Shown here in pieces: positions 18,405-63,620 of a stretch of DNA of 64,000 bases. Numbering within the stretch: the stretch's first letter is position 1; every line of letters begins with the position of its first letter. The translations under genes and the position numbers were made by a program. The notes beneath the pieces were generated by a model. The model did not search any database and had not been told where the DNA came from. It worked only from the letters and a program-made list of their open reading frames with translations. The stretch is from a bacterium. Its GTDB lineage: Bacteria > Patescibacteriota > Saccharimonadia > Saccharimonadales > JAUPVS01. The stretch lies in the NCBI GenBank assembly GCA_029780855.1, contig JAKOXV010000003.1, forward strand, positions 84,953-148,952, written 5' to 3'.

Positions 18405-18432
18405 ACTATATTATCCAATCTCTGTATAACGT

Positions 18433-19503: not shown

Positions 19504-19596
19504 ATTCCCCTAGTTGATTATAGATACCGTATTATACCGTAAAAATCGACGCTCTGGCCAGTTAGGCCTAACTATACTAAGATGGAATAGCTCAGT

Positions 19597-23208: not shown

Positions 23209-23310
23209 TATATAGGACGTCTCAGCAAATTCATACCATAGTTGTAAAAATGAAAATACATTCTCATGAAAAACATCAGGTTTACGCTATAATGAGAGAA
23301 GATACTCCAT

Positions 23311-25353: not shown

Positions 25354-25422
25354 AACCGTGGTGTTTTTAACTTAAAAGGGGTGGTTACTTTAAGGTAAGC
25401 TATCGTTTATAATGGATACCTA

Positions 25423-27824: not shown

Positions 27825-27870
27825 GAACAAAAGTGTTCGAATTAACCAGAAAAGCCTATAATTATCATTT

Positions 27871-28845: not shown

Positions 28846-28849
28846 TGTA

Positions 28850-30849: not shown

Positions 30850-30924
30850 TGGTTACTTTATTATAAGGAATTCTGTGTAGCGTAAGCAAATGGTAGAGAT
30901 GAGAAAATCTGATATAGTTTAGTT

Positions 30925-31884
30925 ATGAGCAATATTTTAGTTACGGGTGTTAATGGTTTTGTTGGACGTCATCTGGCAAAAGAGTTGCACGATCAAGGAT
31001 ACGGCGTTTTGGGGCTTGGTCAAGAAAAAAACACACCAAAGGAGCTTAAAAATTACTTGAGTGGATACTTTGCTTGTGACCTCAATGATTACGCTCAAGT
31101 TAGTGATCTACCGTTCGATTCGGTATCCGCTATAGTTAATCTTGCTGGGCTTGCAAATGTCGCAGAATCGTTTAAGTTACCTGGTCAGTACGAAAAGGTA
31201 AATGTTAATATTATTTCCAATCTAGCATCTGCCGTTGCAAAAAAGAAGCATCCAGTACGACTTGTTGCTGTAAGCACCGGTGCCGTATATGACCCTAATC
31301 AAAATATGCCCCTAACAGAAATGTCGAGTCTTGTACGGCTTGACAACACCAGCCCTTACGTTAAGAGTAAGATAAAGATGGAAGAGGTAGCTGAGGAGTC
31401 ACGAAGAAATGGGGTGGACTGCGTAATCGTTCGGCCGTTTAATCACATTGGTCCAGGACAAAATCCCGGCTTTCTAGTACCAGACCTAGCAAAACAAGTT
31501 CAAGAAACAGTTTCATCAGGCACTAATCAGATTCAGGTAGGTGACCTTAGCACTAGAAGAGATTATACGGACGTAAGGGACGTAGTAAGGGCATATAGAC
31601 TTTTAGCAACGGTTGATGGAGGCAGTCTAAACCACTCAATATATAACGTTTGTAGTGGAACTCCGTGTTCTGGAGCAAAAATACTTGAACTAGTCTCTAA
31701 AGAACTCGGAATCCCTAAACTGGAAGTAACAGTAGACAAGAGTCGAATCCGACCAAATGATCCTCCTGAGCTTTACGGAAGTTACGAAAAACTAAAAGCT
31801 GATACTGGATGGGAGCCGACTATCCCACTAGACCAAACTATCGCCGATTTTGTTTCCTGGCGCAAATCTAGCCCAGCTGAATAA
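30925..31884 (+). CDS. Rmd-like GDP-4-dehydro-6-deoxy-D-mannose reductase (extended SDR)
   Basis: VTGVNGFVGRHL, RPFNHIGPGQ, VGDLSTRRDYTDVRDV, YNVCSG and TGWEPTI blocks parallel my recollection of Pseudomonas Rmd. It is convergent with gmd. Confidence 0.68.
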   Translation: MSNILVTGVNGFVGRHLAKELHDQGYGVLGLGQEKNTPKELKNYLSGYFACDLNDYAQVSDLPFDSVSAIVNLAGLANVAESFKLPGQYEKVNVNIISNLASAVAKKKHPVRLVAVSTGAVYDPNQNMPLTEMSSLVRLDNTSPYVKSKIKMEEVAEESRRNGVDCVIVRPFNHIGPGQNPGFLVPDLAKQVQETVSSGTNQIQVGDLSTRRDYTDVRDVVRAYRLLATVDGGSLNHSIYNVCSGTPCSGAKILELVSKELGIPKLEVTVDKSRIRPNDPPELYGSYEKLKADTGWEPTIPLDQTIADFVSWRKSSPAE

Positions 31885-32920
31885 TCTGTTCTTCTGCAGC
31901 TAAATCATGGGTTACCATAAGTTTGACGAGACCTTTAAAGTCTACATCTCGTTTCCAGCCGAGTTCTTTTTCTGCTTTTGAAGGATCACCTAACAGCAAA
32001 TCTACCTCGGCAGGACGGAAGAACTCTGGGTTAATGGAAACCAGTGTCTTTCCGGTGCTAGTGTCTACGCCTTTTTCATCGGCTCCATTGCCTTCCCATT
32101 TTAGATCGATATCAATCTCTTTAAATGCTAGCTCACAAAATTCCCGGATAGAGTGGGTTTCTCCTGTAGCCAACACATAATCATCTGGTTTGGATTGCTG
32201 AAGCATGAGCCACATTCCTTTTACGTAATCGCCCGCATAACCCCAGTCGCGTTTTGAATCTAAGTTACCCAGTTCGATCTTTTCTTGTTTTCCGTACTTA
32301 ATACGTGCAACGGACTGGCTAATTTTTCGGGTTACGAACTCTGGACCCCGGCGCTCACCTTCGTGATTAAACAGAATTCCGCTGAGCGCGAACATGCCGT
32401 AGCTTTCGCGGTAATTCCGAGTTATCCAATGTCCATAAAGCTTAGCTACACCATAAGGACTACGTGGGTGGAATGTGGCGGTTTCAGTGTAGCCTTTTTC
32501 CGGCCGGTTATAGTCTAATCCTCCGAACATTTCGCTGGTACTAGCCTGATAAAAGCGCGTTGTTTTCTCTAGACCTGCGAGCCGAATGGCTTCAAGCATA
32601 TTGAGCACTCCCTTACCAGTCACATCGGCCGTAAGTACAGGGTCGCGGAAAGAATAACCAACATGACTGATTGCAGCCAGGTTATATACTTCATCTGGTT
32701 TGATTTCTTGCATTGCTCGCGTTAGTGCGGCAAGATCCAAAAGGTCGGCCATAACAAGATGTACGTATGGCATTTCCGCCTGTACAGCTTTATATCTTGG
32801 GTGGCTGGCTTCCATTTGCCCACGGATAATCCCGTATACTTCGTAGCCTTTTTCATGCAAAAACTTTGCCAAATGGCCGCCGTCTTGACCTGCGATTCCC
32901 GTAATAAGTGCGCGTTTCAC
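31868..32920 (-). CDS. gmd: GDP-mannose 4,6-dehydratase
   Basis: ALITGIAGQDGGHLAKFLHEKGYEVYGI, QASTSEMFG, SPYGVAKLY and NHEGERRG, all canonical Gmd blocks. Confidence 0.93.
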   Translation of the reverse strand: MKRALITGIAGQDGGHLAKFLHEKGYEVYGIIRGQMEASHPRYKAVQAEMPYVHLVMADLLDLAALTRAMQEIKPDEVYNLAAISHVGYSFRDPVLTADVTGKGVLNMLEAIRLAGLEKTTRFYQASTSEMFGGLDYNRPEKGYTETATFHPRSPYGVAKLYGHWITRNYRESYGMFALSGILFNHEGERRGPEFVTRKISQSVARIKYGKQEKIELGNLDSKRDWGYAGDYVKGMWLMLQQSKPDDYVLATGETHSIREFCELAFKEIDIDLKWEGNGADEKGVDTSTGKTLVSINPEFFRPAEVDLLLGDPSKAEKELGWKRDVDFKGLVKLMVTHDLAAEEQIIQLG

Positions 32921-37495: not shown

Positions 37496-38008
37496 CTAGG
37501 CTTCTGATTCCTCAGTGGGTGCTTCTACTGATTCGCCGGGCTTTAGAACAATATGGCGGTCGCGGCCTTCGCCAACGGATTCGGTTACTAGTCCTTCTTC
37601 ATCTGCAAGCTTGTGAATTGTACGGCGGTCTGCGGGGTTCATGGGTTTTAGTTCCATTGGTTCACCGGTTTCTTTGACCTTGTTTACCCATTCCAGGGCT
37701 TTTTCAGCAAGTCGGTCTGCGCGGTTCTTTTTATAATCTGCGATGTCTACATTAGCCCGTACAAGTTCATAGCCCTGATTTCTCAGTGCGTTCATGACCA
37801 TAAACTGCAAAGAACGCATCGTTTCACCACGCTGACCGATCAGAAAGCCGTTGAGGTGCGTAGACGGCACATGTAGTTCGATTACTTCGTCATCCTCTGT
37901 GGTGGCGTACACATCCACGTTGAGTCCAAAGAAAGAAATGATATTTTCTAGGTACTTTTTAGCGTATTGGATTGATTCTTCTACGCCCTTGGCTTGTGTG
38001 TCGCTCAT
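37496..38008 (-). CDS. jag: Jag/SpoIIIJ-associated RNA-binding protein (KH + R3H)
   Basis: GFLIGQRGETMRSLQ is a KH GXXG loop. PMNPADRRTIHKLA is an R3H motif. It occupies the conserved position downstream of yidC. Confidence 0.85.
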   Translation of the reverse strand: MSDTQAKGVEESIQYAKKYLENIISFFGLNVDVYATTEDDEVIELHVPSTHLNGFLIGQRGETMRSLQFMVMNALRNQGYELVRANVDIADYKKNRADRLAEKALEWVNKVKETGEPMELKPMNPADRRTIHKLADEEGLVTESVGEGRDRHIVLKPGESVEAPTEESEA

Positions 38009-38943
38009 GCACGTTTCCTCCGTTTAGCTTTTTTAGCTGTTTTAGAGGATTTTTTGGCTTTTGGCTTGGGTGTTTTCTTTTCTATGACTTCGCCTTCGAT
38101 AACTTGTTTGCCGTTTTTCTTATCGGCTAATTCTTCCATTTCTTCTTCGTCTTCGCGCAATACCCGGTCTTGCTGGAAGTAGGCGATAAAGCTACTGGTG
38201 AACCAGTACAGGGAAAGCGCTGAGGCGATACCAAGCGTTACAAAAAAGATAAAGATTGGAATCATCATGGTGGTAAAGCGGCCAGTTGCTGCCTGCATTT
38301 CACCGGTGTCAGCCTGCTTACCGGAAGAAGCGTCCTTAAGGATTTGCTTAAGACCCTTACCGTCTTTTGGCGATGGCATGAGCTGTTTGCTCTGCAAGTA
38401 CTGCATGAAGGCGCTCAAGAACACCAGAACGAGAGCCGGGAAGTACCATACACCGTCTTTGAGGGCTGGGCGAGCAAGGTCTACAAAACCAAACAAGGTG
38501 GCGTCAAACTTTGAAATGTCGCTACCGACTTCTTTGATCCAGGAAAGGTTCCGTACGAACGGGTAGGAAAATTCGATGAGCTGGTGTGGATCAAGGATGA
38601 GCTTGCGCAAACCGATATACAAACCAATTAGGATAGGGAGCTGCACAATAGTGATGCCGAGCGTTGAAAACGGATTAATCCCGCGCTCTTTATAGAGCTC
38701 CATGGTGAGCATTGATTCTTTTTGACGGTCGCCTTTGGTTTGCTGCTTGATGCGCTTTAGTTCTGGTTGCAGCTTGCGCATTTCTTTAGTGTGGTGCAGC
38801 TGCTTCTTGACGAGAGGCCAGAGCAAAATACGAACAATAAGCGTAAAGATTATGATGGCCAGACCAAAGTTATGGCCAGGCAGAATGGCATAGATAAAGA
38901 CGAGCAGGTTAAAAATAGGTTGGACGATGATGGTCGTAAACAT
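38005..38943 (-). CDS. yidC: membrane protein insertase YidC (monoderm short type with a Lys-rich tail)
   Basis: LLWPLVKKQ...MRKLQPELKRIKQ and ELYKERGINPF motifs with 5 TM helices. The C-terminus is basic (KKTPKPKAKKSSKTAKKAKRRKRA). Confidence 0.9.
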   Translation of the reverse strand: MFTTIIVQPIFNLLVFIYAILPGHNFGLAIIIFTLIVRILLWPLVKKQLHHTKEMRKLQPELKRIKQQTKGDRQKESMLTMELYKERGINPFSTLGITIVQLPILIGLYIGLRKLILDPHQLIEFSYPFVRNLSWIKEVGSDISKFDATLFGFVDLARPALKDGVWYFPALVLVFLSAFMQYLQSKQLMPSPKDGKGLKQILKDASSGKQADTGEMQAATGRFTTMMIPIFIFFVTLGIASALSLYWFTSSFIAYFQQDRVLREDEEEMEELADKKNGKQVIEGEVIEKKTPKPKAKKSSKTAKKAKRRKRA

Positions 38944-39338
38944 TAATTCTCCTTTTGTTCTATAATATCACGTCCGCCCCTGTTTTTCTCACCATTCACA
39001 AGCTTGGCCTGCACAAAAAGGCTGGTTATGTGATTCTGTAAATCATTGTGCGGCATGTCAGCCACTGTTTGGTTAAAAACAGTCACCACGATATCAGGCG
39101 TTCCAACTATTTGATCAGCCTGCAAACGAATAACTTCGTAGATTCGACGGCGGATACGGTTGCGGACCACAGCAGATTTACTAACTTTTTTACTCACCAC
39201 TACCGCAACCCTAAAGGCTTTACGCCGATCGTTCTGAGCAAAGCGCAAACTCATAAACGCACCACGGATTGTCTTTCCGTGTTGATACACAAACTTTAAG
39301 CTGTTATATCCGTGGAACCGGTGGGTGCGCCCAATCAT
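38943..39338 (-). CDS. rnpA: ribonuclease P protein component
   Basis: 131-aa basic protein with a VSKKVSKSAVVRNRIRRRIYE (RNR motif) region. It lies between rpmH and yidC. Confidence 0.85.
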   Translation of the reverse strand: MIGRTHRFHGYNSLKFVYQHGKTIRGAFMSLRFAQNDRRKAFRVAVVVSKKVSKSAVVRNRIRRRIYEVIRLQADQIVGTPDIVVTVFNQTVADMPHNDLQNHITSLFVQAKLVNGEKNRGGRDIIEQKEN

Positions 39339-39399
39339 ATGTAGTACCTATATGTATTGTACCTGTTGCACACGGCGCACAGGATAAATTATATGAAAT

Positions 39400-39537
39400 T
39401 TAATGCGTAAGGCGGGTGCGACCCTTGAGTCGGCGTCGTTTGATAACATTGCGGCCGGCTTTATTTGCCATACGGGCAAAAAACCCGTGCTCGCGTGCTC
39501 GGTGTCGTTTCTTTGGTTGATACGTTCGTTTTGGCAT
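39400..39537 (-). CDS. rpmH: 50S ribosomal protein L34
   Basis: My minus-strand translation is [45 protein letters not shown]. It is missing from the ORF track, where the + ORF 39403-39588 is its shadow. Confidence 0.95.
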
Positions 39538-39866
39538 AGGGTTAAATTATTGCATAAAATCCATTATTATCCAAGCCCCTGTTACTAAGGTGTTAATTTT
39601 TGGCATGTACTTGCGATTCCTAAAAACCTTTCGTACCCCTCCCCTGCTACGTGATTTTCACAATGTTTACCCCACTAATCCACAAAACTTATCCACCATT
39701 CATTGGGTTTTATCCACAGTTTAACTGGGGTGGTTTATCTGTGTGTATAATTTTTCACCGGTCAATCATAAAATACCCTCCCCTTCCCCTACGGGCTTTT
39801 CTACTTGTGGAAAACTTTGTATAGTCTGTGTAGAATATACAAAACGCGAGGTATAAGGAGCGGTAC
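39538..39866. other. DnaA-box cluster upstream of dnaA (putative oriC part or dnaA autoregulatory region)
   Basis: TTATCCACA at 39710-39718, TTATCCACC at 39689-39697 and TAATCCACA at 39676-39684. TTATCCAAG at 39567-39575. TGTGGAAAA (reverse complement TTTTCCACA) at 39806-39814. Confidence 0.6.
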
Positions 39867-41240
39867 ATGGTAGAGACCAATTTGTGGCAGGCAGTCTTGG
39901 GCGAAATAGAACTTTCGCTATCCCGAGCAAGCTATGTTACGTGGTTCAAAAACACCCGGCAGCTCCGCTTCAAAAATGGGGTGCTGGTGGTAGGTGTGCC
40001 AAATGTCTTTATAAAGCAGCAGCTGGAGCGGAAGTATAACCAGCTCATTTCTGACATTCTGGAGCGTACCGGTAATAAGCCAGAAAAGATTGAGTTTAAG
40101 ATTTACTCTGGTATTGCAGGAAGTCGTAAACCTACAGAAGACGAACCGGTAATCCTCCAAACTACCCAGGCTACCGTCACCAAACAGTCCGGTCCCAGAA
40201 GTAATGCGCTCAGCCACTCATACCGCCAAGGACTGAATGAACGATACACGTTTGAAACATTTATTGTTGGTTCAGCCAACGAACTTGCATACGCTGCATG
40301 CCAAGCAATCGCTCAAAATCCCGGCACCAAATACAACCCGTTGTTTTTATACGGTGGCGTGGGAATTGGCAAGACCCACCTTATTCAGGCTGTCGGTAAC
40401 GCAGTGTTAAGCAACAAGAAAGATGCCCGAGTGGTATATGCCTCCACCGAACAGTTCGTGCAAGAGTTCGTTGACGCGCTGCGCTACAAAAAGAACACCG
40501 ACTTTGCCAATCACTACCGGAACGTAGACGTACTGATTGTTGATGACGTGCAGTTTTTGGCTGGCAAAGAAAAGATTCAGGAAGAGTTCTTCCATACATT
40601 CAATGCACTCCACCAAGCAAATAAACAAATTATTATTAGTAGCGATAAGCCACCGAAAGATATTCCTACCCTGGAAGAACGGCTGCGATCACGATTTGCC
40701 TGGGGTATGACTATTGATATGCAAACACCGGATTTTGAAACGCGCTGCGCAATTCTGCAGATTAAGGCATCCGCTCATAACCAGGATTTGCCGAATGACC
40801 TAGTGGAATACCTGGCAACCAACGTACACACCAACATTCGTGAGCTTGAAGGTGCCCTGAATCAGCTACTAGCGTTTTGTGAAATGCGCGGCTTACAACC
40901 AGACTTAGCCATTGCCACCGGTTTACTGGGCGCTAATAAAACTCGCCCTAAACACTTAAGTGCCAAGCAGATTATTGAGCGCACCGCCCGGCACTTCTCT
41001 ATTCCTATGGAAGATATCTTAGGCCCAAAGCGCGACAAAGATATTGTAGTACCCCGCCAGATCGCTATGTACATGCTGCGGAGCGAGCTCCACTTAAGTT
41101 TTCCAAAGATCGCCCGCGAACTTGGCCGCAAAGATCACACTACAGCTATACATTCTGTTGAGAAGATAGAGAAAGAATCGTCGTTTGACGCCGATATCCG
41201 TAATGCTATCGCCGAAATAAAGGAGCGTTTGTATGCCTAA
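39867..41240 (+). CDS. dnaA: chromosomal replication initiator protein DnaA
   Basis: Walker A GGVGIGKTHL, LIVDDVQFL, the IRELEGAL sensor region, and the C-terminal DHTTAIHSVEKI DNA-binding helix. Confidence 0.97.
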   Translation: MVETNLWQAVLGEIELSLSRASYVTWFKNTRQLRFKNGVLVVGVPNVFIKQQLERKYNQLISDILERTGNKPEKIEFKIYSGIAGSRKPTEDEPVILQTTQATVTKQSGPRSNALSHSYRQGLNERYTFETFIVGSANELAYAACQAIAQNPGTKYNPLFLYGGVGIGKTHLIQAVGNAVLSNKKDARVVYASTEQFVQEFVDALRYKKNTDFANHYRNVDVLIVDDVQFLAGKEKIQEEFFHTFNALHQANKQIIISSDKPPKDIPTLEERLRSRFAWGMTIDMQTPDFETRCAILQIKASAHNQDLPNDLVEYLATNVHTNIRELEGALNQLLAFCEMRGLQPDLAIATGLLGANKTRPKHLSAKQIIERTARHFSIPMEDILGPKRDKDIVVPRQIAMYMLRSELHLSFPKIARELGRKDHTTAIHSVEKIEKESSFDADIRNAIAEIKERLYA

Positions 41241-41502
41241 AAACATGGTATACGTATGTGGAAAGCCCGTGCATAGCCTTTGGGTAGAGCTGTGTAAGGT
41301 TCTAGGCTTTGCACAGCCTTTAGATTTTCACTATTTTAAAGTTGGGCATATCCCCATGGTTATCCAGAAGTTTGTACAAGCTTTGTACTCAACTTTTCCA
41401 CCCAGCAATTTGTATTTTTACCCCTGTTATTTTTCAGTTACACACACTATACACAGGCCCTATGATAACAATAACTATTTATATAAAGGAGAATAGTTAC
41501 TT
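41241..41502. other. second cluster of degenerate DnaA boxes plus an AT-rich stretch in the dnaA-dnaN spacer (putative oriC/DUE)
   Basis: TGTGGAAAG at 41257-41265, TTATCCAGA at 41360-41368, TTTTCCACC at 41394-41402 and TTACACACA at 41438-41446. The stretch ataacaataactatttatataaa is AT-rich and sits just before dnaN. Confidence 0.5.
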
Positions 41503-42594
41503 ATGAAGCTGCAAGTAACCCAGGAAAATCTGAGCAAGGCACTAGGCAATGTGGCCCGAATCGCTAATACGCGTAGTACCTTACCTATTCTTTCTAATGT
41601 CTTATTAAAAACCGTAAACAATCGGCTCAGTATTGCGGCTACCAATTTAGATATTGCAATCACACAGTACATTGGTTCTAAAGTTTCGACAGAGGGAACC
41701 ATTACCGTCCCTGCCCGACTGATGCAGGATTTTGTAAGCAGCTTACCGAGCGGTGTTATTGATTTGACACTTGATGACATAAAGCTACATGTCAGTACTG
41801 AACAGTATCAATCAGTCATTAATGGTGTACCAGCAGATGACTACCCGGTAATGCCAGCAATAGAAAACGGGGTTGAGTGGACGATTCCCTCTAATGTCCT
41901 GAAAAAGGGTTTACAGCAAGTTGTGTTTGCCGCGTCGAACGATGAAACTCGTCCGGTACTAACGGGCATATATTTCCACAGCGAAGGTGGAAAACTATTT
42001 ATGGCAGCCACCGATAGTTACCGCTTAGCAGAAAAAGAACTCATGAAAACCAAAGAGGAGATTTCCCTACTCGTACCCGCTAACGCCATGCAGGATCTGT
42101 TGCGGATTATTGGTGATACAGAAGACGATGTACATATTATTCATGATGACCAACAGGTTTTATTCAGGGTTGATGATGTGGAATTAGTGGCTCGGCTTAT
42201 TGAGGGAAATTATCCACCGTATAAGAAGCTTATTCCGGCTACCTTTGCTACATCAGCCAAGCTAAAACGGAGTGAGTTAAATAGTATTACAAAGGTTTCT
42301 AGTCTGTTTGCCCGAGAGAGTGCTGGGAGTATCACGATTAAAGTAGACGAAGAAAAGCAAACAGTTAGTATCCACTCTATCGCCTCACAGCTTGGGGAAA
42401 ATACCGCCGGTGCGAGCGCTGAGGTTACTGGAAGTGGTGATATTACCCTCAACTCCCGTTACGTGCTTGATGCACTAGGCGCGATACACGGCGATAGCGT
42501 TACATTTGGTTTCAATGGTAAGTTAGAAGCTTGTAGTTTTAGGGATAACGACGAGCCAGATTACGTACATATCATTATGCCGCTGAAAAGCTAG
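41503..42594 (+). CDS. dnaN: DNA polymerase III beta sliding clamp
   Basis: 363 aa. The N-terminus MKLQVTQENLSKAL...RSTLPILSNVLL, plus TDSYRLA and a C-terminus ending IIMPLK, are typical of DnaN. Confidence 0.95.
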   Translation: MKLQVTQENLSKALGNVARIANTRSTLPILSNVLLKTVNNRLSIAATNLDIAITQYIGSKVSTEGTITVPARLMQDFVSSLPSGVIDLTLDDIKLHVSTEQYQSVINGVPADDYPVMPAIENGVEWTIPSNVLKKGLQQVVFAASNDETRPVLTGIYFHSEGGKLFMAATDSYRLAEKELMKTKEEISLLVPANAMQDLLRIIGDTEDDVHIIHDDQQVLFRVDDVELVARLIEGNYPPYKKLIPATFATSAKLKRSELNSITKVSSLFARESAGSITIKVDEEKQTVSIHSIASQLGENTAGASAEVTGSGDITLNSRYVLDALGAIHGDSVTFGFNGKLEACSFRDNDEPDYVHIIMPLKS

Positions 42595-42619
42595 CAAGAA
42601 AGTTCGGTACAATACGGGT

Positions 42620-43675
42620 ATGATCACCAACATCCGTTTACAACACTTCAGGTCATACAACGACGAATCGTTTGAATTTGATAATGGGGTGAATATTATT
42701 GTTGGTCCTAACGCCAGTGGAAAGACGAACCTACTGGAAGCCATACTTATGGTTAGTCGCGGTAAATCCTACCGGGCGGCAGATAGTGAATTGATTACCC
42801 ACACCCAACCGTGGGCCCGTATTGATGCCTTTGCAGAGAAAGAACATCGGGTAGTAAAGCTGCAGCGAGAAGATGAGCAAGTAAAAAAGAGTTTTGAAGT
42901 TGATGATAAGGTCTTTAGTAGGCTTGGTAGTGCTCACACTATTCCGGTAGTACTGTTTGAGCCGGATCATTTGAGTATGTTGAGCGGTTCACCTGAAGGC
43001 CGCCGTAATTTTATTGATGAATTGATTGAACAGGTAACGCCTGGCTACAGCACCACACTTCGGCATTACAAGCGGGCTCTCGCGCAGCGGAACAGACTTT
43101 TAAAAAACGGCATACAAGCCGCCGACGAACAGCTTTTTGCTTGGGATGTGAGGTTGAGTGATCTTGGCGCCCATATTGTCTCAGAACGCGTTAAAATGCT
43201 TGAGACGATAAATAAAGACCTACCCCACATCTATAGCGAGTTAGCTAAGCAGCTGAGCGTAGCAAAGATTGCGTATAGTAATGAAACAGAACCGACGCTG
43301 TATGCGTCTTACTTACTTAATAAATTAGAAAAAGATCGAAGCCTGGACATAGCACGGGGTTTTACCGGTACGGGGCCTCACCGCGAAGACCTCATAATGT
43401 TTTTGCACAATAAACTACTTTCCCAAACTGCTTCACGCGGTGAAAGCCGGACAATGCTACTAGCTCTGAAGATTATTGAACTAAAGATTATTGAAAAAGC
43501 ACGAGACAAAAAGCCGCTACTGCTCCTTGATGACGTCTTTAGTGAGTTGGATGGATCGCGGCGTAAATCTCTCACTGAACATATGCAAGAGTACCAGACA
43601 TTCATAACCACCACCGATGCTGATGTGGTAGTTAAGGACTTTATTCAGTCGGTACAAACTATTCTGCTTGGATAA
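42620..43675 (+). CDS. recF: DNA replication/repair protein RecF
   Basis: GPNASGKTNLLEAI Walker A, a SRGESRTMLLALK signature-like region, and LLLDDVFSELD Walker B. Confidence 0.92.
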   Translation: MITNIRLQHFRSYNDESFEFDNGVNIIVGPNASGKTNLLEAILMVSRGKSYRAADSELITHTQPWARIDAFAEKEHRVVKLQREDEQVKKSFEVDDKVFSRLGSAHTIPVVLFEPDHLSMLSGSPEGRRNFIDELIEQVTPGYSTTLRHYKRALAQRNRLLKNGIQAADEQLFAWDVRLSDLGAHIVSERVKMLETINKDLPHIYSELAKQLSVAKIAYSNETEPTLYASYLLNKLEKDRSLDIARGFTGTGPHREDLIMFLHNKLLSQTASRGESRTMLLALKIIELKIIEKARDKKPLLLLDDVFSELDGSRRKSLTEHMQEYQTFITTTDADVVVKDFIQSVQTILLG

Positions 43676-58099: not shown

Positions 58100-58615
58100 A
58101 TGAACGATCAAAACCAAAACAATCCAAAACCAGATTATGGATTTATCCTTAATCAACAGGCACCTACCCCGAAGCCCAAGCACAGTAAAAAGGTGCTTGT
58201 ACTGATTGGGCTTGGCGGTGTACTGATCGTTGCGTTAATAGGTTCGTATGTACTTACTAGCTCGCTCAATAAAGTGAGTAACCAGACGCAAACCAACCAG
58301 GCGGCCGCTGCCACCCACTTGCGGAACATCGCTAGCGGTGATACAGCAGCGGCATATAGCGAACTCAGCACCAATACCCAAACCAACTACACCCAAGAAG
58401 CCTATAAGAGCGAAGTGCTCAAAACGCTCACCGATAAGATAGACATCGGTACCTGCAGTGAAGATACTGCAAAACATACCGCCACCACGGTATACTTTGC
58501 TTGCTCCAGTAGTGATAAAAAGTTCAAAGTAACACTTAAGCTGGTAACTACAGAGGAAAACTCTCAAACACGTATTCAGCGTTATGAAGTGGTGGGAGCG
58601 GAGAAAGTGTCATGA
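58100..58615 (+). CDS. bitopic membrane protein, first gene of the pilin operon
   Basis: ORF 58043-58615 trimmed to MNDQNQNNPKPDYGF. It has one TM helix (VLVLIGLGGVLIVALIGSYVL) and a small ectodomain with 2 Cys. Confidence 0.45.
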   Translation: MNDQNQNNPKPDYGFILNQQAPTPKPKHSKKVLVLIGLGGVLIVALIGSYVLTSSLNKVSNQTQTNQAAAATHLRNIASGDTAAAYSELSTNTQTNYTQEAYKSEVLKTLTDKIDIGTCSEDTAKHTATTVYFACSSSDKKFKVTLKLVTTEENSQTRIQRYEVVGAEKVS

Positions 58616-59268
58616 AAAAACTGATTTTTATCGTCTTTTTGCTCGCCGTCATGGTTGCGCCGTTTATGGTGAGCAAGCCAGCGGCTGCAGCTGCTGACCC
58701 CGGGTGTTATGAAGTTGTTCCGGTCCCAGGGATTGGTGCAGCAGTAGGTAAAGTCGACTGTAGCGTTCTTTCGTTCTATGCAAGCAATTGGGGCGGAGCT
58801 GCACCAGGAGAATGTTGGATAATAGGCTTATCCGCTTCAGGTTTGCCTGAAGGCTCACCGCAGCCACAAAAACAGGACTGTGCCACGCTAACCGTAACGG
58901 CGCAATCTAACCTAGATGGCACGATAGACACCGTGGATCAGGCGCGATCCAGGATTATTAATGACCAGCGCCAGCAGGCGAATGCGAGCAGTCCGGTAGG
59001 TTGTGCGTACTCTGATTTACAGAACCAATCAGACAACTGTACGATTATGCACTACGTTAATATTGTGATTGATGTGCTATCTGCGGCAGTTGGTATTATA
59101 GTGATAATCATGATTGTCGCTGGCGGCATACAATACATAACAGCAGGGGGCGATCCCCAAAGGGTAACTGCAGCGAAAGCTCGCATAGCAAACGCCGTGC
59201 TTGCATTAGTGGCGTTCTTGTTCCTCTTCGCCTTCTTGCAATGGATCGTACCAGGAGGACTATTTTAA
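58612..59268 (+). CDS. T4SS pilin-like protein 1 (VirB2/TrbC-like C-terminus fused to a ~130-aa Cys-rich ectodomain)
   Basis: Signal peptide (...KPAAAAA), 7 Cys in the ectodomain, then a helix - IQYITAGGDPQRVTAAKARIANAVLALV - helix module. Confidence 0.65.
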   Translation: MKKLIFIVFLLAVMVAPFMVSKPAAAAADPGCYEVVPVPGIGAAVGKVDCSVLSFYASNWGGAAPGECWIIGLSASGLPEGSPQPQKQDCATLTVTAQSNLDGTIDTVDQARSRIINDQRQQANASSPVGCAYSDLQNQSDNCTIMHYVNIVIDVLSAAVGIIVIIMIVAGGIQYITAGGDPQRVTAAKARIANAVLALVAFLFLFAFLQWIVPGGLF

Positions 59269-59657
59269 TGTTTTGGACACAGATTTTTGCAGCGGCCTGT
59301 AACAAGGGGCAAACCTTTTTTGGGCTCCCACCATGGTACCAGTACGTGCCTACCGAAAGTTACACGCCGCCCGGCGGCGTAGAACAGTGCCGCGTGTTGG
59401 TAGATTTCACGGCGCACCCGCGCGACATCTTGCTGGTTAGCTTTGGTATTTTCGATATCTTACTTAGGATTGCTGGCATGATTGCGGTCGGGTACGTGAT
59501 CTACGGAGGATTTCTGTACATGACCAGCCAGGGTGAGCCTGACAAGACTCAGAAAGCCAAGAATACTCTACTGGGAGCATTTATTGGACTGATTATTGTG
59601 CTCATTGCAGTGCCGCTGGTAACGTTTATTGGTAATTCTATTGGAGGAAAACTGTAA
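59268..59657 (+). CDS. T4SS pilin-like protein 2
   Basis: TAATG overlap with the upstream gene. It has the helix - FLYMTSQGEPDKTQKAKNTLLGAFIGLI - helix module. Confidence 0.6.
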   Translation: MFWTQIFAAACNKGQTFFGLPPWYQYVPTESYTPPGGVEQCRVLVDFTAHPRDILLVSFGIFDILLRIAGMIAVGYVIYGGFLYMTSQGEPDKTQKAKNTLLGAFIGLIIVLIAVPLVTFIGNSIGGKL

Positions 59658-59658
59658 G

Positions 59659-59994
59659 ATGTTTAGTTTTTTGCTGTATAAAACCGCCGTACGTTTTGCC
59701 GAAGCAATCAACGTCAATAGCCTACCGGGAGCAAAGAACCCTGACCAGACCCAGGCCTATGTGAGTAAGAACGGCGCGATTTTAGAAATTACTCGCCTGG
59801 TATTTGGCGCTTTTGGTGCAATCGCAGTGTTAATTATTGCCATAGCGGGCGTACAGTACGTGATTTCTCAGGGTGAAGCGCAAAAAATTTCTAAAGCAAA
59901 AAACACCATTATTTATGCAGTGCTCGGCCTGATCATTTCAATCACCGCCTACGGAATTGTTAGCTTTGTACTGAATAGGATCAATGTATCATGA
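59659..59994 (+). CDS. T4SS pilin-like protein 3
   Basis: Starts 1 nt after the upstream stop. It has the helix - VQYVISQGEAQKISKAKNTIIYAVLGLI - helix module and no obvious cleavable signal peptide. Confidence 0.6.
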   Translation: MFSFLLYKTAVRFAEAINVNSLPGAKNPDQTQAYVSKNGAILEITRLVFGAFGAIAVLIIAIAGVQYVISQGEAQKISKAKNTIIYAVLGLIISITAYGIVSFVLNRINVS

Positions 59995-60383
59995 AAAAAC
60001 TAATGGTTGGATTACTGGCTATAGTGTCGGCGCTGGGCTTGCTCACACTTGCTCTTCCCGTCCACGCCGCCGATGTAGTAGGTGGTGCCTGTGGCGTGCC
60101 GGGAGCATCTGGCTCGTCGATATGTTCAAGCACCGGCGCTACTAACCCCGTTTCAGGATCAGGCGGCGTGCTCATGCAGGCCATAAACCTGATTGCTATC
60201 GGTGGTGGTATTGCTGCAGTTATTGTCATTATTGTTGCCGGAGTAAGATTTATTACCTCAAACGGTGACCCTAATAATGTTACTGCTGCTCGCAACACTA
60301 TTCTGTACGCCGTTATCGGTTTGGTCGTTATTGTGGTGTCCCGTTCAATCGTGGTGTTTGTTATAAACTACATAAATAAATAG
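59991..60383 (+). CDS. T4SS pilin-like protein 4
   Basis: ATGA overlap with the upstream gene. Signal peptide ...LPVHA-AD and a Cys pair (GGACGVPGASGSSICSS). It has the VRFITSNGDPNNVTAARNTILYAVIGLV module. Confidence 0.68.
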   Translation: MKKLMVGLLAIVSALGLLTLALPVHAADVVGGACGVPGASGSSICSSTGATNPVSGSGGVLMQAINLIAIGGGIAAVIVIIVAGVRFITSNGDPNNVTAARNTILYAVIGLVVIVVSRSIVVFVINYINK

Positions 60384-60417
60384 GAATATAATAAGAAGGA
60401 ATAAAAGGAATACAGAC

Positions 60418-60825
60418 ATGAAAAAATTACTAATAGCCGTCGCCCTACTGTTTAACTTTAGTGCCGTAACGCTTGCGCTGGCTCCAGCTGCAGTCGTGCA
60501 TGCTGACACTAAAGCGTCGTTGTGTGAGGGTGTTGGCCTTACTTCTGACAATACCGGGTGTAATCAACCCACCAATCCTGATGGTTCGCCAAGCGGTACT
60601 TCGGTAGAAGGGATTATCAAGACAGCGATTAACCTGATTAGTGTCGTCGTTGGTGTTATTGCGGTAATCATGATCATCATCGGTGGATTGCGCTACATTA
60701 CCTCTGGAGGTGATTCTGCCAAGACGGCCAGCGCCAAAGATACCATCCTCTATGCCATCATCGGTCTGGTGATTGTAGCGCTCGCTCAGGTGATCGTTAA
60801 GTACGTGCTAAACAAGATAGGATAA
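60418..60825 (+). CDS. T4SS pilin-like protein 5
   Basis: Signal peptide ...VVHA-DT and a Cys pair (SLCEGVGLTSDNTGCN). It has the LRYITSGGDSAKTASAKDTILYAIIGLV module. Confidence 0.7.
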   Translation: MKKLLIAVALLFNFSAVTLALAPAAVVHADTKASLCEGVGLTSDNTGCNQPTNPDGSPSGTSVEGIIKTAINLISVVVGVIAVIMIIIGGLRYITSGGDSAKTASAKDTILYAIIGLVIVALAQVIVKYVLNKIG

Positions 60826-60901
60826 GCGGTATTTCCACTTGATGGACTACCTCCTATTGTGATATAACCAAAACAGCTTTAAAGAAAGGTTTATAAAAAT
60901 A

Positions 60902-61318
60902 ATGATTACAAAAGTAAAACTACTAGTTCTCTCGGCATTAATGGCTGTGGGCTTTTTGACTCCAGCACTAATTCCCGCCACGGTATCAGCTCAGGCAAAC
61001 ATTGAAAATGGTCTTTGTGCCGGTGCTAACCTGGATGCTACAAGCACCGAAAGCTGTAACGTAAACGATACTGCAGCAACAGACAAGATTAACGGCATTA
61101 TCAAACTGATCATCAACCTCTTCTCACTCGTTGTGGGAGTAGTATCGGTTATCATGATCATCATCGGTGGCCTTAAGTACATAACTTCTGGTGGAGACTC
61201 CGGAAATGTGACGAGCGCAAAGAACACTATTCTCTACGCCATAATCGGTTTAGTGATAGTTGCCCTCGCGCAATTTATCGTGCGCTTCGTTCTCTCAAAG
61301 TTGAGTCAGCAAGCGTAA
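60902..61318 (+). CDS. T4SS pilin-like protein 6
   Basis: Signal peptide ...TVSA-QA and a Cys pair (GLCAGANLDATSTESCN). It has the LKYITSGGDSGNVTSAKNTILYAIIGLV module and is the closest paralogue of protein 5. Confidence 0.7.
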   Translation: MITKVKLLVLSALMAVGFLTPALIPATVSAQANIENGLCAGANLDATSTESCNVNDTAATDKINGIIKLIINLFSLVVGVVSVIMIIIGGLKYITSGGDSGNVTSAKNTILYAIIGLVIVALAQFIVRFVLSKLSQQA

Positions 61319-61923: not shown

Positions 61924-62055
61924 ATATGTTGTTACCCTCCGCGCATGAACGCTTTATGTCATTATTTTGCGTTTTTATCTTTATGCCAGTATAACTTAGC
62001 GTTGGTAGCCTATGCAACGTCTATAGGCGAATATTTACAACACAATAATCACAAC

Positions 62056-62721
62056 ATGTTCATAACCGAAAAAATCATCAGCATTTTTGCACCGCACACC
62101 TGTATATTGTGCGACACGGAAGGATTAGTGCTTTGTGGCTGGTGTAGTCAGGAAGCGTTTTATTCTGTTCCGCCCCGCTGTTATCGGTGTCGGGCCGCTT
62201 CGGCCGAGTCAGCGACCTGCAAAAAATGCCGGAGCGGCTCGGTACTTTCCAATGTGTGGGTATTTACGGAGTACGGTGGTGTGTCGCGCGAGGTGTTGCG
62301 GCGACTAAAATTTGGACGTGCTCAAGCGGCTGCACAAGATATTGCTAGGGCGCTTGACGATGTGGTCCCCTTCCTTGCGCCTGACACAGTCATCACACAT
62401 GTACCTACAGCAACTAGTCGAGTTCGCATGCGGGGATATGATCAGTCGCGATTGATTGCCAAGGAGTTTGCTCGGCTTCGCAGCCTTCCCTACCGGAGTC
62501 TGCTGCTGCGAATTGGGCAGGCTCGACAGGTAGGATCTACGCGCGTCGAACGTGCCCGGCAGGTAGACGGAGCTTTCCGGCTACTCAGGCGTATCCCCGA
62601 GAAAGTCCTGCTGATTGATGATGTAGTTACCACCGGGGCGACCATAGAATCAGCCGCCAAACTGCTAAAAACCCATGGAGCTAAAAAAGTGCACGCAGCA
62701 GTGTTTGCCCAAAAGCAGTGA
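62056..62721 (+). CDS. comF: ComF-family protein (zinc-finger + phosphoribosyltransferase fold)
   Basis: CILC...CGWC and CYRC...CKKC cysteine pairs, plus C-terminal VLLIDDVVTTGATIESA. Start trimmed from 61945 to the ATG at 62056 and remains uncertain. Confidence 0.8.
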   Translation: MFITEKIISIFAPHTCILCDTEGLVLCGWCSQEAFYSVPPRCYRCRAASAESATCKKCRSGSVLSNVWVFTEYGGVSREVLRRLKFGRAQAAAQDIARALDDVVPFLAPDTVITHVPTATSRVRMRGYDQSRLIAKEFARLRSLPYRSLLLRIGQARQVGSTRVERARQVDGAFRLLRRIPEKVLLIDDVVTTGATIESAAKLLKTHGAKKVHAAVFAQKQ

Positions 62722-62727
62722 AACACT

Positions 62728-62755
62728 TTGTTTGTAGCGCAATTGCTGGTATAAT
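62728..62755 (+). promoter_or_regulatory. candidate sigma70-type promoter for tRNA-Ser(UGA)
   Basis: A perfect TATAAT at 62750-62755 lies 23 nt before the tRNA 5' end. A weak TTGTTT -35 candidate sits ~16 nt upstream. Confidence 0.3.
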
Positions 62756-62778
62756 CACCCCTGTTATTCAATTATATT

Positions 62779-62868
62779 GGAAGGGTGACCGAGTGGTTTA
62801 AGGTAACGGTCTTGAAAACCGTCGTGCCGGAAACGGTACCGTGGGTTCGAATCCCACCCCTTCCGCCA
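62779..62868 (+). tRNA. tRNA-Ser (anticodon UGA), CCA encoded
   Basis: Acceptor ggaaggg/cccttcc. Anticodon stem acggt/accgt with loop cuUGAaa. Long variable arm. T-arm gtggg-ttcgaat-cccac. Discriminator G followed by CCA. Confidence 0.9.
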
Positions 62869-63019
62869 CGTTCTCATGTCTGCATCTTGTAGGCGGGAGA
62901 ACGTGCTGAACGGCTGTATTGAGAATCCACGCGGGTTCGGCGAACGAGGAGCGGAGATGAAAAGATGCTTGCATGTTTTTATCGAGCACCGCAGGAAGGA
63001 GTGCGCGTCAGCGCGCGAT

Positions 63020-63037
63020 ATCCCACCCCTTCCGCCA
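63020..63037 (+). repeat. direct repeat of the last 18 nt of tRNA-Ser(UGA)
   Basis: atcccaccccttccgcca at 63020-63037 is identical to 62851-62868, 169 nt upstream. Confidence 0.9.
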
Positions 63038-63076
63038 AGTTTTTGCTATACTAGCCTGGTTCCATACATACAATAC

Positions 63077-63169
63077 GGAGGAGTACCCAAGTGGCTGAAG
63101 GGGACGGTTTGCTAAATCGTTAGTGGGGAGCAATCTCCAGCGAGGGTTCGAATCCCTCCTCCTCCGCCA
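63077..63169 (+). tRNA. tRNA-Ser (anticodon GCU), CCA encoded
   Basis: Acceptor ggaggag/ctcctcc. Anticodon stem acggt/atcgt with loop uuGCUaa. Long variable arm. T-arm gaggg-ttcgaat-ccctc. Discriminator G followed by CCA. Confidence 0.9.
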
Positions 63170-63176
63170 AATTAAG

Positions 63177-63207
63177 ATAGTCCCTGAGTAAGGGGCTATT
63201 TTAATTT
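63177..63207 (+). terminator. Rho-independent terminator after tRNA-Ser(GCU)
   Basis: atagtccc (63177-63184) pairs with ggggctat (63192-63199) with one G-U, followed by tttaattt. Confidence 0.55.
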
Positions 63208-63329
63208 ACACGCGAAGAGTAAGGATTCGAACGGGAGTGCCAGCGGCACTCCCCGCACCTTGCTCGTCATATGCCAGTGGTATATGTAAGAGTAAACTTG
63301 GCAAAAGTTTTTTCCTTTTGCCGTTTAGG

Positions 63330-63350
63330 CGAATCCCTCCTCCTCCGCCA
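63330..63350 (+). repeat. direct repeat of the last 21 nt of tRNA-Ser(GCU)
   Basis: cgaatccctcctcctccgcca at 63330-63350 is identical to 63149-63169, 181 nt upstream. Confidence 0.9.
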
Positions 63351-63443
63351 GGAGAGAAAAGTTACTGCCGTGAAGGCCGTGGCCTTTTGTCTTTTAGGTA
63401 CCCAAACCACGATACTGCAGCGTGGTCTTGTATACTTAACCCC

Positions 63444-63593
63444 ATGGCAATCCAACCAAAATGTGACAAATGCGGTGAGGAGCTTACTGAATTTGGTGGC
63501 ATACTCCTGAGCCCACCAAATGATCAAGGTGACGTCAAGAAGTTCCACCTCTGTTCGCAGTGCTATCAGGCGTTCGCCAATGAACTGACGTAG
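63444..63593 (+). CDS. small zinc-ribbon protein (49 aa)
   Basis: MAIQPKCDKCGEELTEFGG...HLCSQCYQAF has two CxxC pairs. The longer ORF (from 63237) would read through the tRNA 3'-end repeat, so I use the internal ATG at 63444. Confidence 0.4.
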   Translation: MAIQPKCDKCGEELTEFGGILLSPPNDQGDVKKFHLCSQCYQAFANELT

Positions 63594-63620
63594 TATTCGA
63601 TTCACCTTTTACCTGTTCTC

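Follow-up and report, generated by a model that had tools for sequence, protein, structure and literature searches.

Trailer units with the layout of E. coli RtT follow both tRNA-Ser genes in a Saccharimonadales sequence

In the 64-kb stretch of DNA analysed here (from contig JAKOXV010000003.1; hereafter the window, whose numbering is used for coordinates), both tRNA-Ser genes are followed on the same strand by a short segment whose end exactly duplicates the 3' end of that tRNA. These two segments, unit 1 behind tRNA-Ser(UGA) and unit 2 behind tRNA-Ser(GCU), share the layout of the RtT units of Escherichia coli without detectable sequence homology to them. To judge from its sequence, unit 1 is a member of a family of trailer units in the Saccharimonadales. 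Unit 2 shares only the family layout (a terminator, an antisense copy and a tail copy) around a private interior. The units are tentatively read as RtT-like tRNA-trailer units that would be transcribed and processed together with their tRNA into a small RNA, a reading to which we give slightly less than an even chance. The host belongs to the Saccharimonadales (Candidate Phyla Radiation (CPR)/Patescibacteria), as judged from the relatives of its ComF protein. Fetched relative and comparator loci are designated Lnnn, and unit 1 of the window is designated W1 where it is compared with them.

Results

The tRNA genes and their tail repeats

The window contains exactly two tRNA genes according to ARAGORN and Rfam, and both are intact. 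The tail of tRNA-Ser(UGA) (ATCCCACCCCTTCCGCCA) recurs with a start-to-start distance of 169 nt, and the tail of tRNA-Ser(GCU) (CGAATCCCTCCTCCTCCGCCA) recurs with a distance of 181 nt. Both repeats extend from within the T-loop (positions 59 and 56, respectively) to the encoded CCA, and the DNA that they bound is 151 bp and 160 bp long. An earlier reading of this DNA, made without database searches (the sequence-only reading), had reported the 18-nt and 21-nt tails with their CCA, and both recur exactly where it placed them (Table 1). Its view that this geometry is unlikely to be due to chance is borne out by shuffled sequences, in which 0.01 matches to repeat 1 and 0.00 matches to repeat 2 are expected with 3 mismatches permitted. 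The four hairpins that it named are all present, two of them at corrected coordinates (63003-63016 and 63233-63253). It overlooked the GGGTTCG at 62933-62939, the inverted tRNA-Ser(GCU) tail at 63214-63232, and the terminator-like look of 63170-63206.

The spacer between unit 1 and tRNA-Ser(GCU) contains TGCTATACT, which resembles an extended -10 element by eye and was not flagged by the promoter scan. The AATAC immediately 5' of tRNA-Ser(GCU) is common to the window and its relatives. The copies were not taken for a tRNA pseudogene or an intron-containing tRNA, since ARAGORN and Rfam are silent there and the 5' half is absent. Small open reading frames (ORFs) across the spacers were also rejected; they run into tRNA-Ser(GCU) or are not conserved.

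Table 1. Features of the tRNA-Ser region in window coordinates (MFE, minimum free energy; HMM, hidden Markov model)
Feature	Position	Strand	Basis and remarks
ComF	61945-62721		Just upstream of tRNA-Ser(UGA)
tRNA-Ser(UGA)	62779-62868	+	ARAGORN; Rfam tRNA 60.5 bits; CCA encoded
Repeat 1, copy 1	62851-62868	+	Final 18 nt of tRNA-Ser(UGA)
Hairpin CGTTCTC...GAGAACG	62869-62903	+	Inverted repeat I3, MFE fold; abuts tRNA-Ser(UGA)
Helix P2, GAGAATCC-ACGC-GGGTTCGG	62921-62940	+	Sequence; pattern match 62933-62944; pair counts in 7 units
Unit 1 insert, type A	62940-63019	+	BLAST, nhmmer (HMM search), pair counts
Small hairpin GCGCG-TCAG-CGCGC	63003-63016	+	Sequence
Repeat 1, copy 2	63020-63037	+	18/18 exact; tRNA-Ser(UGA) positions 59-76 including CCA; end of unit 1
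Spacer upstream of tRNA-Ser(GCU), native-looking	63038-63076	+	Comparison by eye with L002, L161 and L166
tRNA-Ser(GCU)	63077-63169	+	ARAGORN; Rfam tRNA 55.9 bits; CCA encoded
Repeat 2, copy 1	63149-63169	+	Final 21 nt of tRNA-Ser(GCU)
Hairpin T1, AAUUAAGAUAGUCCC-UGAGUAA-GGGGCUAUUUUAAUU, terminator-like	63170-63206	+	MFE fold; starts right after CCA
Antisense copy of tRNA-Ser(GCU) T-loop/acceptor 3' strand, decayed	63212-63232	+	Inverted repeat I1; BLAST self-match
Unit 2 interior, three hairpins	63233-63329	+	63233-63253, 63260-63295 and 63300-63322; fold z -8.8
Repeat 2, copy 2	63330-63350	+	21/21 exact; tRNA-Ser(GCU) positions 56-76 including CCA
Hairpin T2, terminator-like	63367-63387	+	Terminator scan; 3' of unit 2

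Anatomy of the two units

The hairpin directly behind tRNA-Ser(UGA) (62869-62903) has no U-tract and is absent from the terminator scan list; by its sequence it does not look like an intrinsic terminator. The antisense component of this unit consists only of a decayed outer piece and an inner pairing of GGAAGGAGUG with CACCCCUUCC. Within helix P2, a decayed antisense T-arm pairs with the 5' half of a sense T-arm (tRNA positions 51-57), which is present in spacer 1 as GGGTTCG at 62933-62939. The T-arm of unit 1 is split at 58|59, with GGGTTCG followed by the insert and ATCCC... resuming from 63020. The type A insert carries a GC clamp (62951-62952 with 62986-62987) and a hairpin, H2 (62956-62983), that has a CUUG loop and is followed by GAGCA. 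Downstream of H2, GGAAGGAGTG (62994-63003) can pair with CACCCCTTCC of the tail copy, in mimicry of the top half of a tRNA acceptor/T-stem; L150 has GGGAGGAGTG in the equivalent place, with a G.U pair. Spacer 1 together with its copy has an RNA fold z of -2.3. Unit 1 matches the L151 unit by BLAST at 84% over 74 nt (E 1e-15), and the ComF proteins of the two loci are only ~46% identical. It is also recovered by nhmmer with a module HMM (E 1e-13) and with an insert-only HMM (E 3e-9).

Unit 2 lies behind hairpin T1, which is in the style of the terminators that follow tRNA-Ser(GCU) in L002, L003, L004 and L006, relatives that are unit-free there. The antisense copy matches at 16 of 19 positions (84% complementary, 63214-63232). 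Together, the tRNA end, T1 and the antisense copy form a quasi-palindrome at 63146-63232 (BLAST self-match of 78% over 63 nt). Spacer 2 with its copy folds into a four-way junction with z = -8.8, in which the MFE and centroid structures coincide, and this junction is closed by the predicted pairing of 63330-63350 with 63212-63232. Unit 2 does not contain a sense GGGTTCG, and its tail copy begins at position 56, so there is no 58|59 split. Its interior has no BLAST or HMM relative in any fetched locus. The sequence-only reading had suggested a search for further spacer copies; related ones exist for unit 1, in relatives and always adjacent to a tRNA gene, and none was found for the interior of unit 2.

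Relatives with and without units

The ComF proteins of the comparator loci are at most 56% identical to that of the window, and no closer relative is among them. The gene order is conserved: type IV secretion system (T4SS) pilins, HSP20, ComF, tRNA-Ser(UGA), tRNA-Ser(GCU), and a membrane protein. In L002, L004 and L006, the tail copy is absent at both tRNA-Ser genes. These genes are 32-117 nt apart, and a terminator comes after the GCU gene, with the membrane-protein gene ~90-120 nt beyond this tRNA. Because these loci have compact, unit-free spacing, the 169- and 181-bp segments of the window are extra DNA. Empty sites, which the sequence-only reading had proposed to look for in relatives, were found in L002 and L006.

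Equivalent units are present in at least nine other genomes (L150, L151, L161, L166, L167, L168, L170, L005 and L003). In L150, an exact 18-nt copy lies 159 nt downstream, behind tRNA-Ser(UGA). This locus holds ~1.45 units, the second being a partial tandem unit (83% over 71 nt). Units behind tRNA-Ser(GCU) occur in L151, L161, L166, L167 and L168, and units behind tRNA-Arg(GCG) occur in L170, L166, L003 and L167. L167 contains three units, including those behind tRNA-Ser(CGA) and tRNA-Arg(GCG), and L005 contains two, both behind tRNA-Ser(UGA). Of 42 non-redundant Saccharimonadales tRNA genes, 8 are followed within 400 nt by a free exact copy of positions 59-70, compared to 0 of 317 tRNA genes in all the remaining fetched loci. 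For antisense copies within 150 nt, the counts are 5 of 35 Saccharimonadales genes and 0 of 152 elsewhere.

All 15 family instances, as well as both window units, lie directly downstream of a tRNA gene on the tRNA strand. Downstream of a hairpin, often a terminator, family units carry the T-arm/acceptor 3' strand in antisense, then GGGTTCG in sense, an insert rich in hairpins, and the sense tail. A variable hairpin usually sits between the antisense copy and GGGTTCG. The antisense copy of the Arg units starts with TGGTA, the complement of TACCA. Inserts are 55-90 nt long and contain a hairpin clamped by GC...GAGC(A). The sense T-arm is split exactly at position 58, and the tail copy of most units begins at T-loop position 59 of the adjoining tRNA; in the Arg unit of L003, the sense fragment is uninterrupted. 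The module and insert-only HMMs match only tRNA-adjacent units in ~287 kb of Saccharimonadales DNA, and no unit copy away from tRNA trailers is found by HMM in the window or in this related DNA.

Insert types cross tRNA identity. The insert of W1 (Ser-UGA) resembles that of L151 (Ser-GCU), and one insert type is common to the tRNA-Ser(UGA) of L005 and the tRNA-Arg of L170 (96% over 28 nt). The L161 insert resembles the L166 insert. Across genomes the inserts are 84-96% identical, with ComF only ~45-50% identical. The tail copy and the antisense segment, in turn, match each genome's own acceptor-stem variant.

The tail copies are cut or interrupted in L151, L161, L166, L168 and L005. Three tRNA-Ser(GCU) units have a copy that ends after position 70, without CCGCCA, and reads ATCCCTCTCTCT or ATCCCTCCTCCT (L161 7084-7095, L166 7100-7111, and L168 10465-10476). 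This stop is a second recurrent boundary beside the T-loop start. In L151 (7478-7507), an insertion of 15 nt separates position 68 from CCGCCA. The quasi-palindrome of tRNA 3' end, terminator and antisense copy seen in the window is also present in L151 (78% over 60 nt). Terminator stems of the relatives are graded in extent; they stop at the CCA in L002 and L003 and include CGCCA/TGGCG in L006. This graded extent of the quasi-palindromes suggests that the copying took place in situ.

Evidence for a folded strand

Seven units were aligned by hand and fitted to structure, and the counts are therefore biased towards structure. The helices scored are P2 (antisense with sense T-arm), the GC clamp, and the hairpin. 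In this alignment, 93.5% of cells are paired, and seven pairs are altered on both sides. The covariation score is 0.268 compared to 0.138 in shuffles, and none of 500 shuffles reaches it. When the registers are slid, 26-48% of cells are paired. On the tRNA-sense strand there are ~9 G.U pairs and 2 A.C mismatches, and because the former outnumber the latter the fold is assigned to this strand. CUUG, UUCG and GNRA loops are also found on the tRNA-sense strand only. Triloops of the type C(GAA)G, highly stable in DNA, are present in L151, L170 and L167. On this modelled fold evidence, folded RNA and folded single-stranded DNA cannot be told apart.

Comparison with E. coli RtT

The E. coli tyrT operon contains a 178-bp unit that is repeated 3.14 times, each repeat carrying the last 19 nt of tRNA-Tyr. 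The function of the RtT RNA and of the tyrT repeats is still unclear. The tyrT locus of NZ_AP018488.1 reads tRNA-Tyr, RtT, tRNA-Tyr, RtT, RtT, and RefSeq annotates RtT as 'rtT sRNA, processed from tyrT transcript'. Each unit consists of a 22-nt antisense T-arm/acceptor copy (86% complementary), CTA, sense AGGTTCGA, a 68-nt hairpin insert, and a 19-nt tail copy (AATCCTTCCCCCACCACCA). With the RtT covariance model (RF00391, gene rttR), for which the gathering threshold is 45 bits, the E. coli units reach 121-134 bits. According to the RefSeq note and to bioRxiv 10.1101/2024.07.17.603846, RtT is released as a discrete RNA from the tRNA transcript.

The window units correspond to RtT in several respects. 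Both lie behind a tRNA gene on its strand, in the order tRNA, unit, tRNA, unit(s). Unit length is 178 bp in E. coli and 169 and 181 bp in the window, and the exact copy from T-loop to CCA at the unit end is 19 nt in E. coli and 18 and 21 nt in the window. The antisense copy is 22 nt at 86% in E. coli and 19 nt at 84% in unit 2. The T-arm of RtT is split at 58|59 by a ~68-nt hairpin insert, and unit 1 and the family are alike in this; unit 2 is not. The Rfam consensus is closed by pairing of the antisense copy with the tail copy, as is the predicted fold of unit 2.

There are also differences. The tRNAs are tRNA-Ser and tRNA-Arg in CPR bacteria rather than tRNA-Tyr in Proteobacteria. Each tRNA of the window has one unit, compared to the 3.14-fold array of E. 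coli, with L150 (~1.45 units) in between. Most tRNA-Ser(GCU) units of the Saccharimonadales, unlike RtT, come after a terminator-like hairpin. Unit 2 lacks the sense GGGTTCG, and most Saccharimonadales units have a weak closing helix. The look-alike motifs UGAGAA, AGCGAGA and GCGCG-CAG-CGC were considered as signs of RtT homology and were set aside as not statistically supported. A second E. coli comparator is the 3' external transcribed spacer (3'ETS) of leuZ, a small RNA derived from a tRNA 3' trailer. It is similar to the proposed product in being a functional RNA cut from the trailer of a tRNA transcript by tRNA-processing enzymes, and differs in that it is not known to carry a tRNA 3'-end copy or to form repeated units.

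Discussion

Proposed processing of the trailer units with their tRNA

Under the favoured explanation, each tRNA-Ser gene would carry one non-coding trailer unit of ~170-180 bp on the tRNA strand, assembled partly from the tRNA's own 3' region: an antisense segment, in unit 1 GGGTTCG, an insert, and the exact sense tail. The unit would be co-transcribed with its tRNA. Unit 1, with no terminator between it and tRNA-Ser(UGA), sits between the two tRNA genes and could be reached directly; transcription of unit 2 would require read-through of T1. The transcript would fold on the tRNA-sense strand. Because the unit ends in the tRNA's own 3' sequence, the enzymes that process tRNA ends might then trim it to a discrete small RNA, the route reported for RtT. 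In the DNA itself, the tRNA-derived repeats, both direct and inverted, would permit gene conversion, unequal crossing-over and inversion. The first two of these could hold the copies identical to the tRNA beside them, carry insert types from one locus to another, and make tandem units. Among the options offered by the sequence-only reading, that of structured RNAs co-transcribed with the tRNAs comes closest to the evidence in its structural part (compensatory hairpins, wobble pairs on the tRNA-sense strand, and the RtT layout); its transcriptional part is putative.

Several results weigh against the trailer-RNA explanation. Transcription of most tRNA-Ser(GCU) units, including unit 2, is doubtful because a strong terminator-like hairpin precedes them and no promoter of their own was seen. 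Selection on the CCA end should not allow the truncated and interrupted tail copies of L151, L161, L166, L168 and L005. The structural alignment comprises only seven hand-fitted sequences, and RNAalifold on an automatic MAFFT alignment of 11 units, a poor alignment, gives no consensus pairs. Neither unit matches the RtT model in the Rfam scan of the spacers that the sequence-only reading had suggested, at E<=10, whether on 62000-64000 or on slices of 170-190 nt (62869-63040 and 63170-63355); L167 likewise has no match at E<=1. Alignments of E. coli with Saccharimonadales inserts score no better than shuffles, and the module HMM gives the E. coli tyrT locus an E of 0.098. The duplex energy of the closing helix has a z of -4.3 in E. 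coli and is no better than shuffles in the Saccharimonadales units.

Possible integration scars or miniature elements

It is unlikely, in our estimate, that the units are integration scars or miniature non-autonomous elements, similar to cis-mobilizable elements (CIMEs), in tRNA 3' ends. Such an origin would have a recombinase-inserted element supply a new 3' end and displace the native one; nearly all of its cargo would later have been lost, or it would have had none from the start and be mobilised in trans. The exact repeats from T-loop to CCA have the classical form of a tRNA att duplication (PMC4383910; PMC9897764), in which the att repeat spans the T-loop to the tRNA 3' end (PMC4383910; PMC9897764; bioRxiv 10.1101/2023.11.06.565760). 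As in the Islander islands and the mv4 phage at a tRNA-Ser 3' end, an intact gene is accompanied by a displaced 3' copy in direct orientation. Unlike in an att duplication, however, the DNA between the repeats is only 151-160 bp long and is without integrase or cargo, and the units have a conserved structured interior, antisense copies, positions past a terminator in relatives, and no viral match. A ~170-bp circle would also be a poor recombination substrate, which is counted against a scar.

The empty sites in L002 and L006 favour insertion, as does the presence of one insert type beside different tRNAs. Native-looking sequence follows each second copy in the window (the tRNA-Ser(GCU) spacer at 63038-63076 and T2 at 63367-63387), and lineage-specific genes lie right after the second copy in L150 (DNA methylases), L166 (Fic) and the window (a 49-amino-acid (aa) ORF). 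Against these stand five relatives, L151, L161, L166, L167 and L168, in which the unit is located beyond a native-style terminator. The terminator there precedes the unit and the copy has no second one behind it; the tRNA gene was therefore not the site of insertion in these loci. Integrase arm sites would not be expected to show compensatory hairpins or wobble pairs specific to one strand, and integration does not account for antisense copies that track the local tRNA variant.

Neither the units nor the ORFs tested across the 64 kb contain an integrase. The statement of the sequence-only reading that none is encoded between the repeats is correct, since the spacers (151 and 160 bp) contain no credible ORF. 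Among the ORFs tested, which include nearly every long ORF of the window, there are no integrase, transposase, reverse transcriptase (RT) or TnpB domains, and no IS110-type, Cas1, integron-integrase or tyrosine/serine-recombinase domains. Both cores are common in IMG/VR contigs, and one contig has the 21-nt core at both ends (L010/L021), which favours insertion. These contigs were rejected as relatives of the units; they carry ordinary tRNA-Ser genes of other hosts, with no short-range copy and no spacer match. By BLAST, neither spacer has a match in the phage collection. Searches of IMG/VR with four insert motifs return nothing, or chance matches in coding regions of unrelated GC-rich phages; plasmids were not searched. 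The conserved inserts are thus absent from IMG/VR and the phage collection, and the idea of an integrase or phage that carries the unit as attP finds no spacer or insert copy in either.

CIMEs are kilobases long and carry genes. They have att-like direct repeats and no recombinase of their own, and probably derive from or depend on autonomous elements (PMC5704250; PMC7563491). The window units are similarly bounded by att-like direct repeats without their own recombinase; they differ in that no helper or recombinase was found for them and no copies are present at non-tRNA sites. Of the proposed miniature elements targeting tRNA ends, the insert types that cross tRNAs and the empty sites agree with the proposal, and the missing off-tRNA copies and mobilising enzyme do not. 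The proposal of two independent scars with lost cargo is not supported, given the unit 1 interior, which belongs to a conserved family, and the lack of an integrase and of a viral copy. Classical integration scars are not supported. A miniature inverted-repeat transposable element or other transposon-derived miniature element was rejected as well, with no copies off tRNA trailers in the window and the ~287 kb and no transposase. The 18-21-nt repeats also far exceed the usual target duplications.

Possible by-products of replication or repair

It is improbable that the units are functionless by-products of template switching, unequal crossing-over and gene conversion. A switch at the post-tRNA hairpin would lengthen the palindrome into the tRNA 3' end and so produce the antisense copy, and a second switch would produce the sense copy; small insertions, along with crossing-over and conversion, would later shape the units and spread them. 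The long quasi-palindromes of the window (78% over 63 nt) and L151 (78% over 60 nt) fit template switching, and the graded extent of the terminator stems in L002 and L003 compared to L006 fits such an origin as well. Copies that track the local tRNA variant are what in-situ copying predicts. Decay or truncation is seen in many units, a second tandem unit is partly present in L150 (83% over 71 nt), and the tRNA pair is inverted in L005, L170 and L173. The inserts, however, are 84-96% identical though ComF is ~45-50% identical, and neutral DNA would not stay alignable over such distances. Pairing has been kept through two-sided changes. Units of no use would probably have been discarded from genomes of ~1 Mb that are quick to lose DNA, and an equal layout is found in E. 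coli, for which the annotation describes the RNA as processed.

Possible elements acting on the T-arm

Two further explanations give the tRNA segments a role in recombination. It is very unlikely that the units represent a widespread class of elements that are copied from their own template and capture the adjoining tRNA 3' end in sense and antisense and direct recombination or copying at 58|59. The segments would act, with the same low probability, as folded RNA or single-stranded DNA, and no better a chance is given to the corollary that E. coli RtT and the Saccharimonadales units are two outcomes of one cross-phylum mechanism.

Least probable of all is a folded single-stranded DNA or guide-like RNA for a recombinase that acts at tRNA T-arm sequences, for which the CTX-phage attP, integron attC, the IS110 bridge RNA and the IS200/IS605 omega RNA are precedents. 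Each strand of the target would be recognised by one of the tRNA segments, sense or antisense, and the units do join antisense-left and sense-right segments of one T-loop position, 58|59. The strand-specific fold favours this explanation, the C(GAA)G triloops of L151, L170 and L167 favour single-stranded DNA in particular, and insert types move between tRNA loci in a rearrangement-prone region. The window ORFs tested, however, contain no TnpB, IS110-type, Cas1, integron-integrase or tyrosine/serine-recombinase domain. The sole recombinase near a unit-bearing locus is the large serine recombinase of L170, located beside a unit-less tRNA. A guide that matches the intact upstream tRNA gene would target the cell's own genome, and there are no copies outside tRNA trailers. 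A TnpB/omega-RNA-like guide, an IS110 bridge RNA and a casposase-type long target duplication were set aside for want of an associated protein domain, and a tRNA-primed reverse-transcriptase footprint (18 nt being the stretch to modified A58) was set aside with no RT domain in the window.

Surroundings of the locus

The 49-aa ORF at 63444-63593 lies between unit 2 and the membrane-protein gene (start 63636) and contains two CxxC pairs (MAIQPKCDKCGEEL...CSQCYQAF). It has no Pfam match and is the sole member of its cluster in the protein collection. The ~90-120-nt gap between the tRNA and the membrane-protein gene in L002, L003, L004 and L006 leaves no room for it. The only match in a search with the downstream membrane protein is the Logan contig L009. 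Lineage-specific genes for defence or toxins adjoin the units. In the window genome, a D12 methylase and an EcoRI-like endonuclease are encoded just past the membrane protein (L009 1191-3028, ~64330-66170), beyond the window end. Two DNA methylase genes follow the second copy directly in L150 (7165-10343), and a Fic gene does so in L166 (7168-8088). The Logan contigs of the same organism break in tRNA 3' parts (L008 ends at 62863 and L009 starts at 63140), which is an assembly effect, likely of tRNA k-mers shared with other strains in the sample, and no evidence of polymorphism.

Other small repeats are present at the tRNA loci of the relatives. A ~70-75-nt repeat, GAGACAAAC..TTTTTCTCA CGCGCCGGCAAAA..TTTTGTCGGGCTGCTCTTTTCC, flanks the second tail copy of L150 in direct orientation (6879-6948 and 7040-7110) and is present once, inverted, in L003 between the tRNA-Ser genes (10948-11022, reverse strand); it may be a small mobile or terminator-pair element. 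A ~75-90-nt element, TTCGAC...GTCGAAG(A/G)ACC, lies directly after the CCA of tRNA-Ser(CGA) in L167 (12051-12130) and of tRNA-Ser(GCU) in L168 (10236-10315), preceding the terminator and unit.

The tRNA-Ser locus is prone to rearrangement. The tRNA-Ser genes are on the strand opposite to ComF in L005 (10680-12724), L170 (8703-9276) and L173 (8647-8871). In L005, a block of tRNA, hairpin and unit is duplicated around a gene for a 491-aa cytochrome b561/molybdopterin oxidoreductase. The recombinase of L170 (12210-13773; 444 aa, with Resolvase, Recombinase and Zn_ribbon_recom domains) is encoded 138 nt downstream of the unit-less tRNA-Ser(CGA) and is convergent with it, and there may be an integrated element at this tRNA.

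Further from the units, the origin region of the window (37496-43675) carries KhpB/R3H, yidC and rnpA on the minus strand, dnaA at 39867-41240, dnaN, and recF. The tRNA locus is ~23 kb rightward of dnaA and is oriented away from that gene. Positions 14000-32000 have a GC content of 0.38-0.41, compared to 0.45-0.51 elsewhere, and cover part of a large gene cluster for cell-envelope polysaccharide, which includes many glycosyltransferases and a Wzt/ABC-2 exporter; this low-GC region may be horizontally acquired. Six tandem T4SS-pilin (TrbC/VirB2-like) paralogues at 58612-61318 adjoin TrbL, PrgI, TraC-like and TraG-like genes. Because this arrangement is kept in all relatives examined, the pilin block is part of the genome core and not an integrative and conjugative element.

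Significance

RtT has previously been an isolated oddity. The units described here place its layout in a distant, genome-reduced phylum, at new tRNAs (Ser and Arg) and without sequence similarity, and they form a lineage-specific sequence family. Many independent units are now available for comparison. This recurrence suggests either a general function of trailer RNAs that bear a tRNA tail or a general mutational process at tRNA 3' ends. A duplicated tRNA 3' end alone is not proof of an integrated element, and such units can mislead island finders that use displaced tRNA fragments as their signal. For the Saccharimonadales, a group whose RNA biology is almost unexplored, the units are candidate small RNAs, and they mark a hotspot of rearrangement and gene insertion beside tRNA genes.

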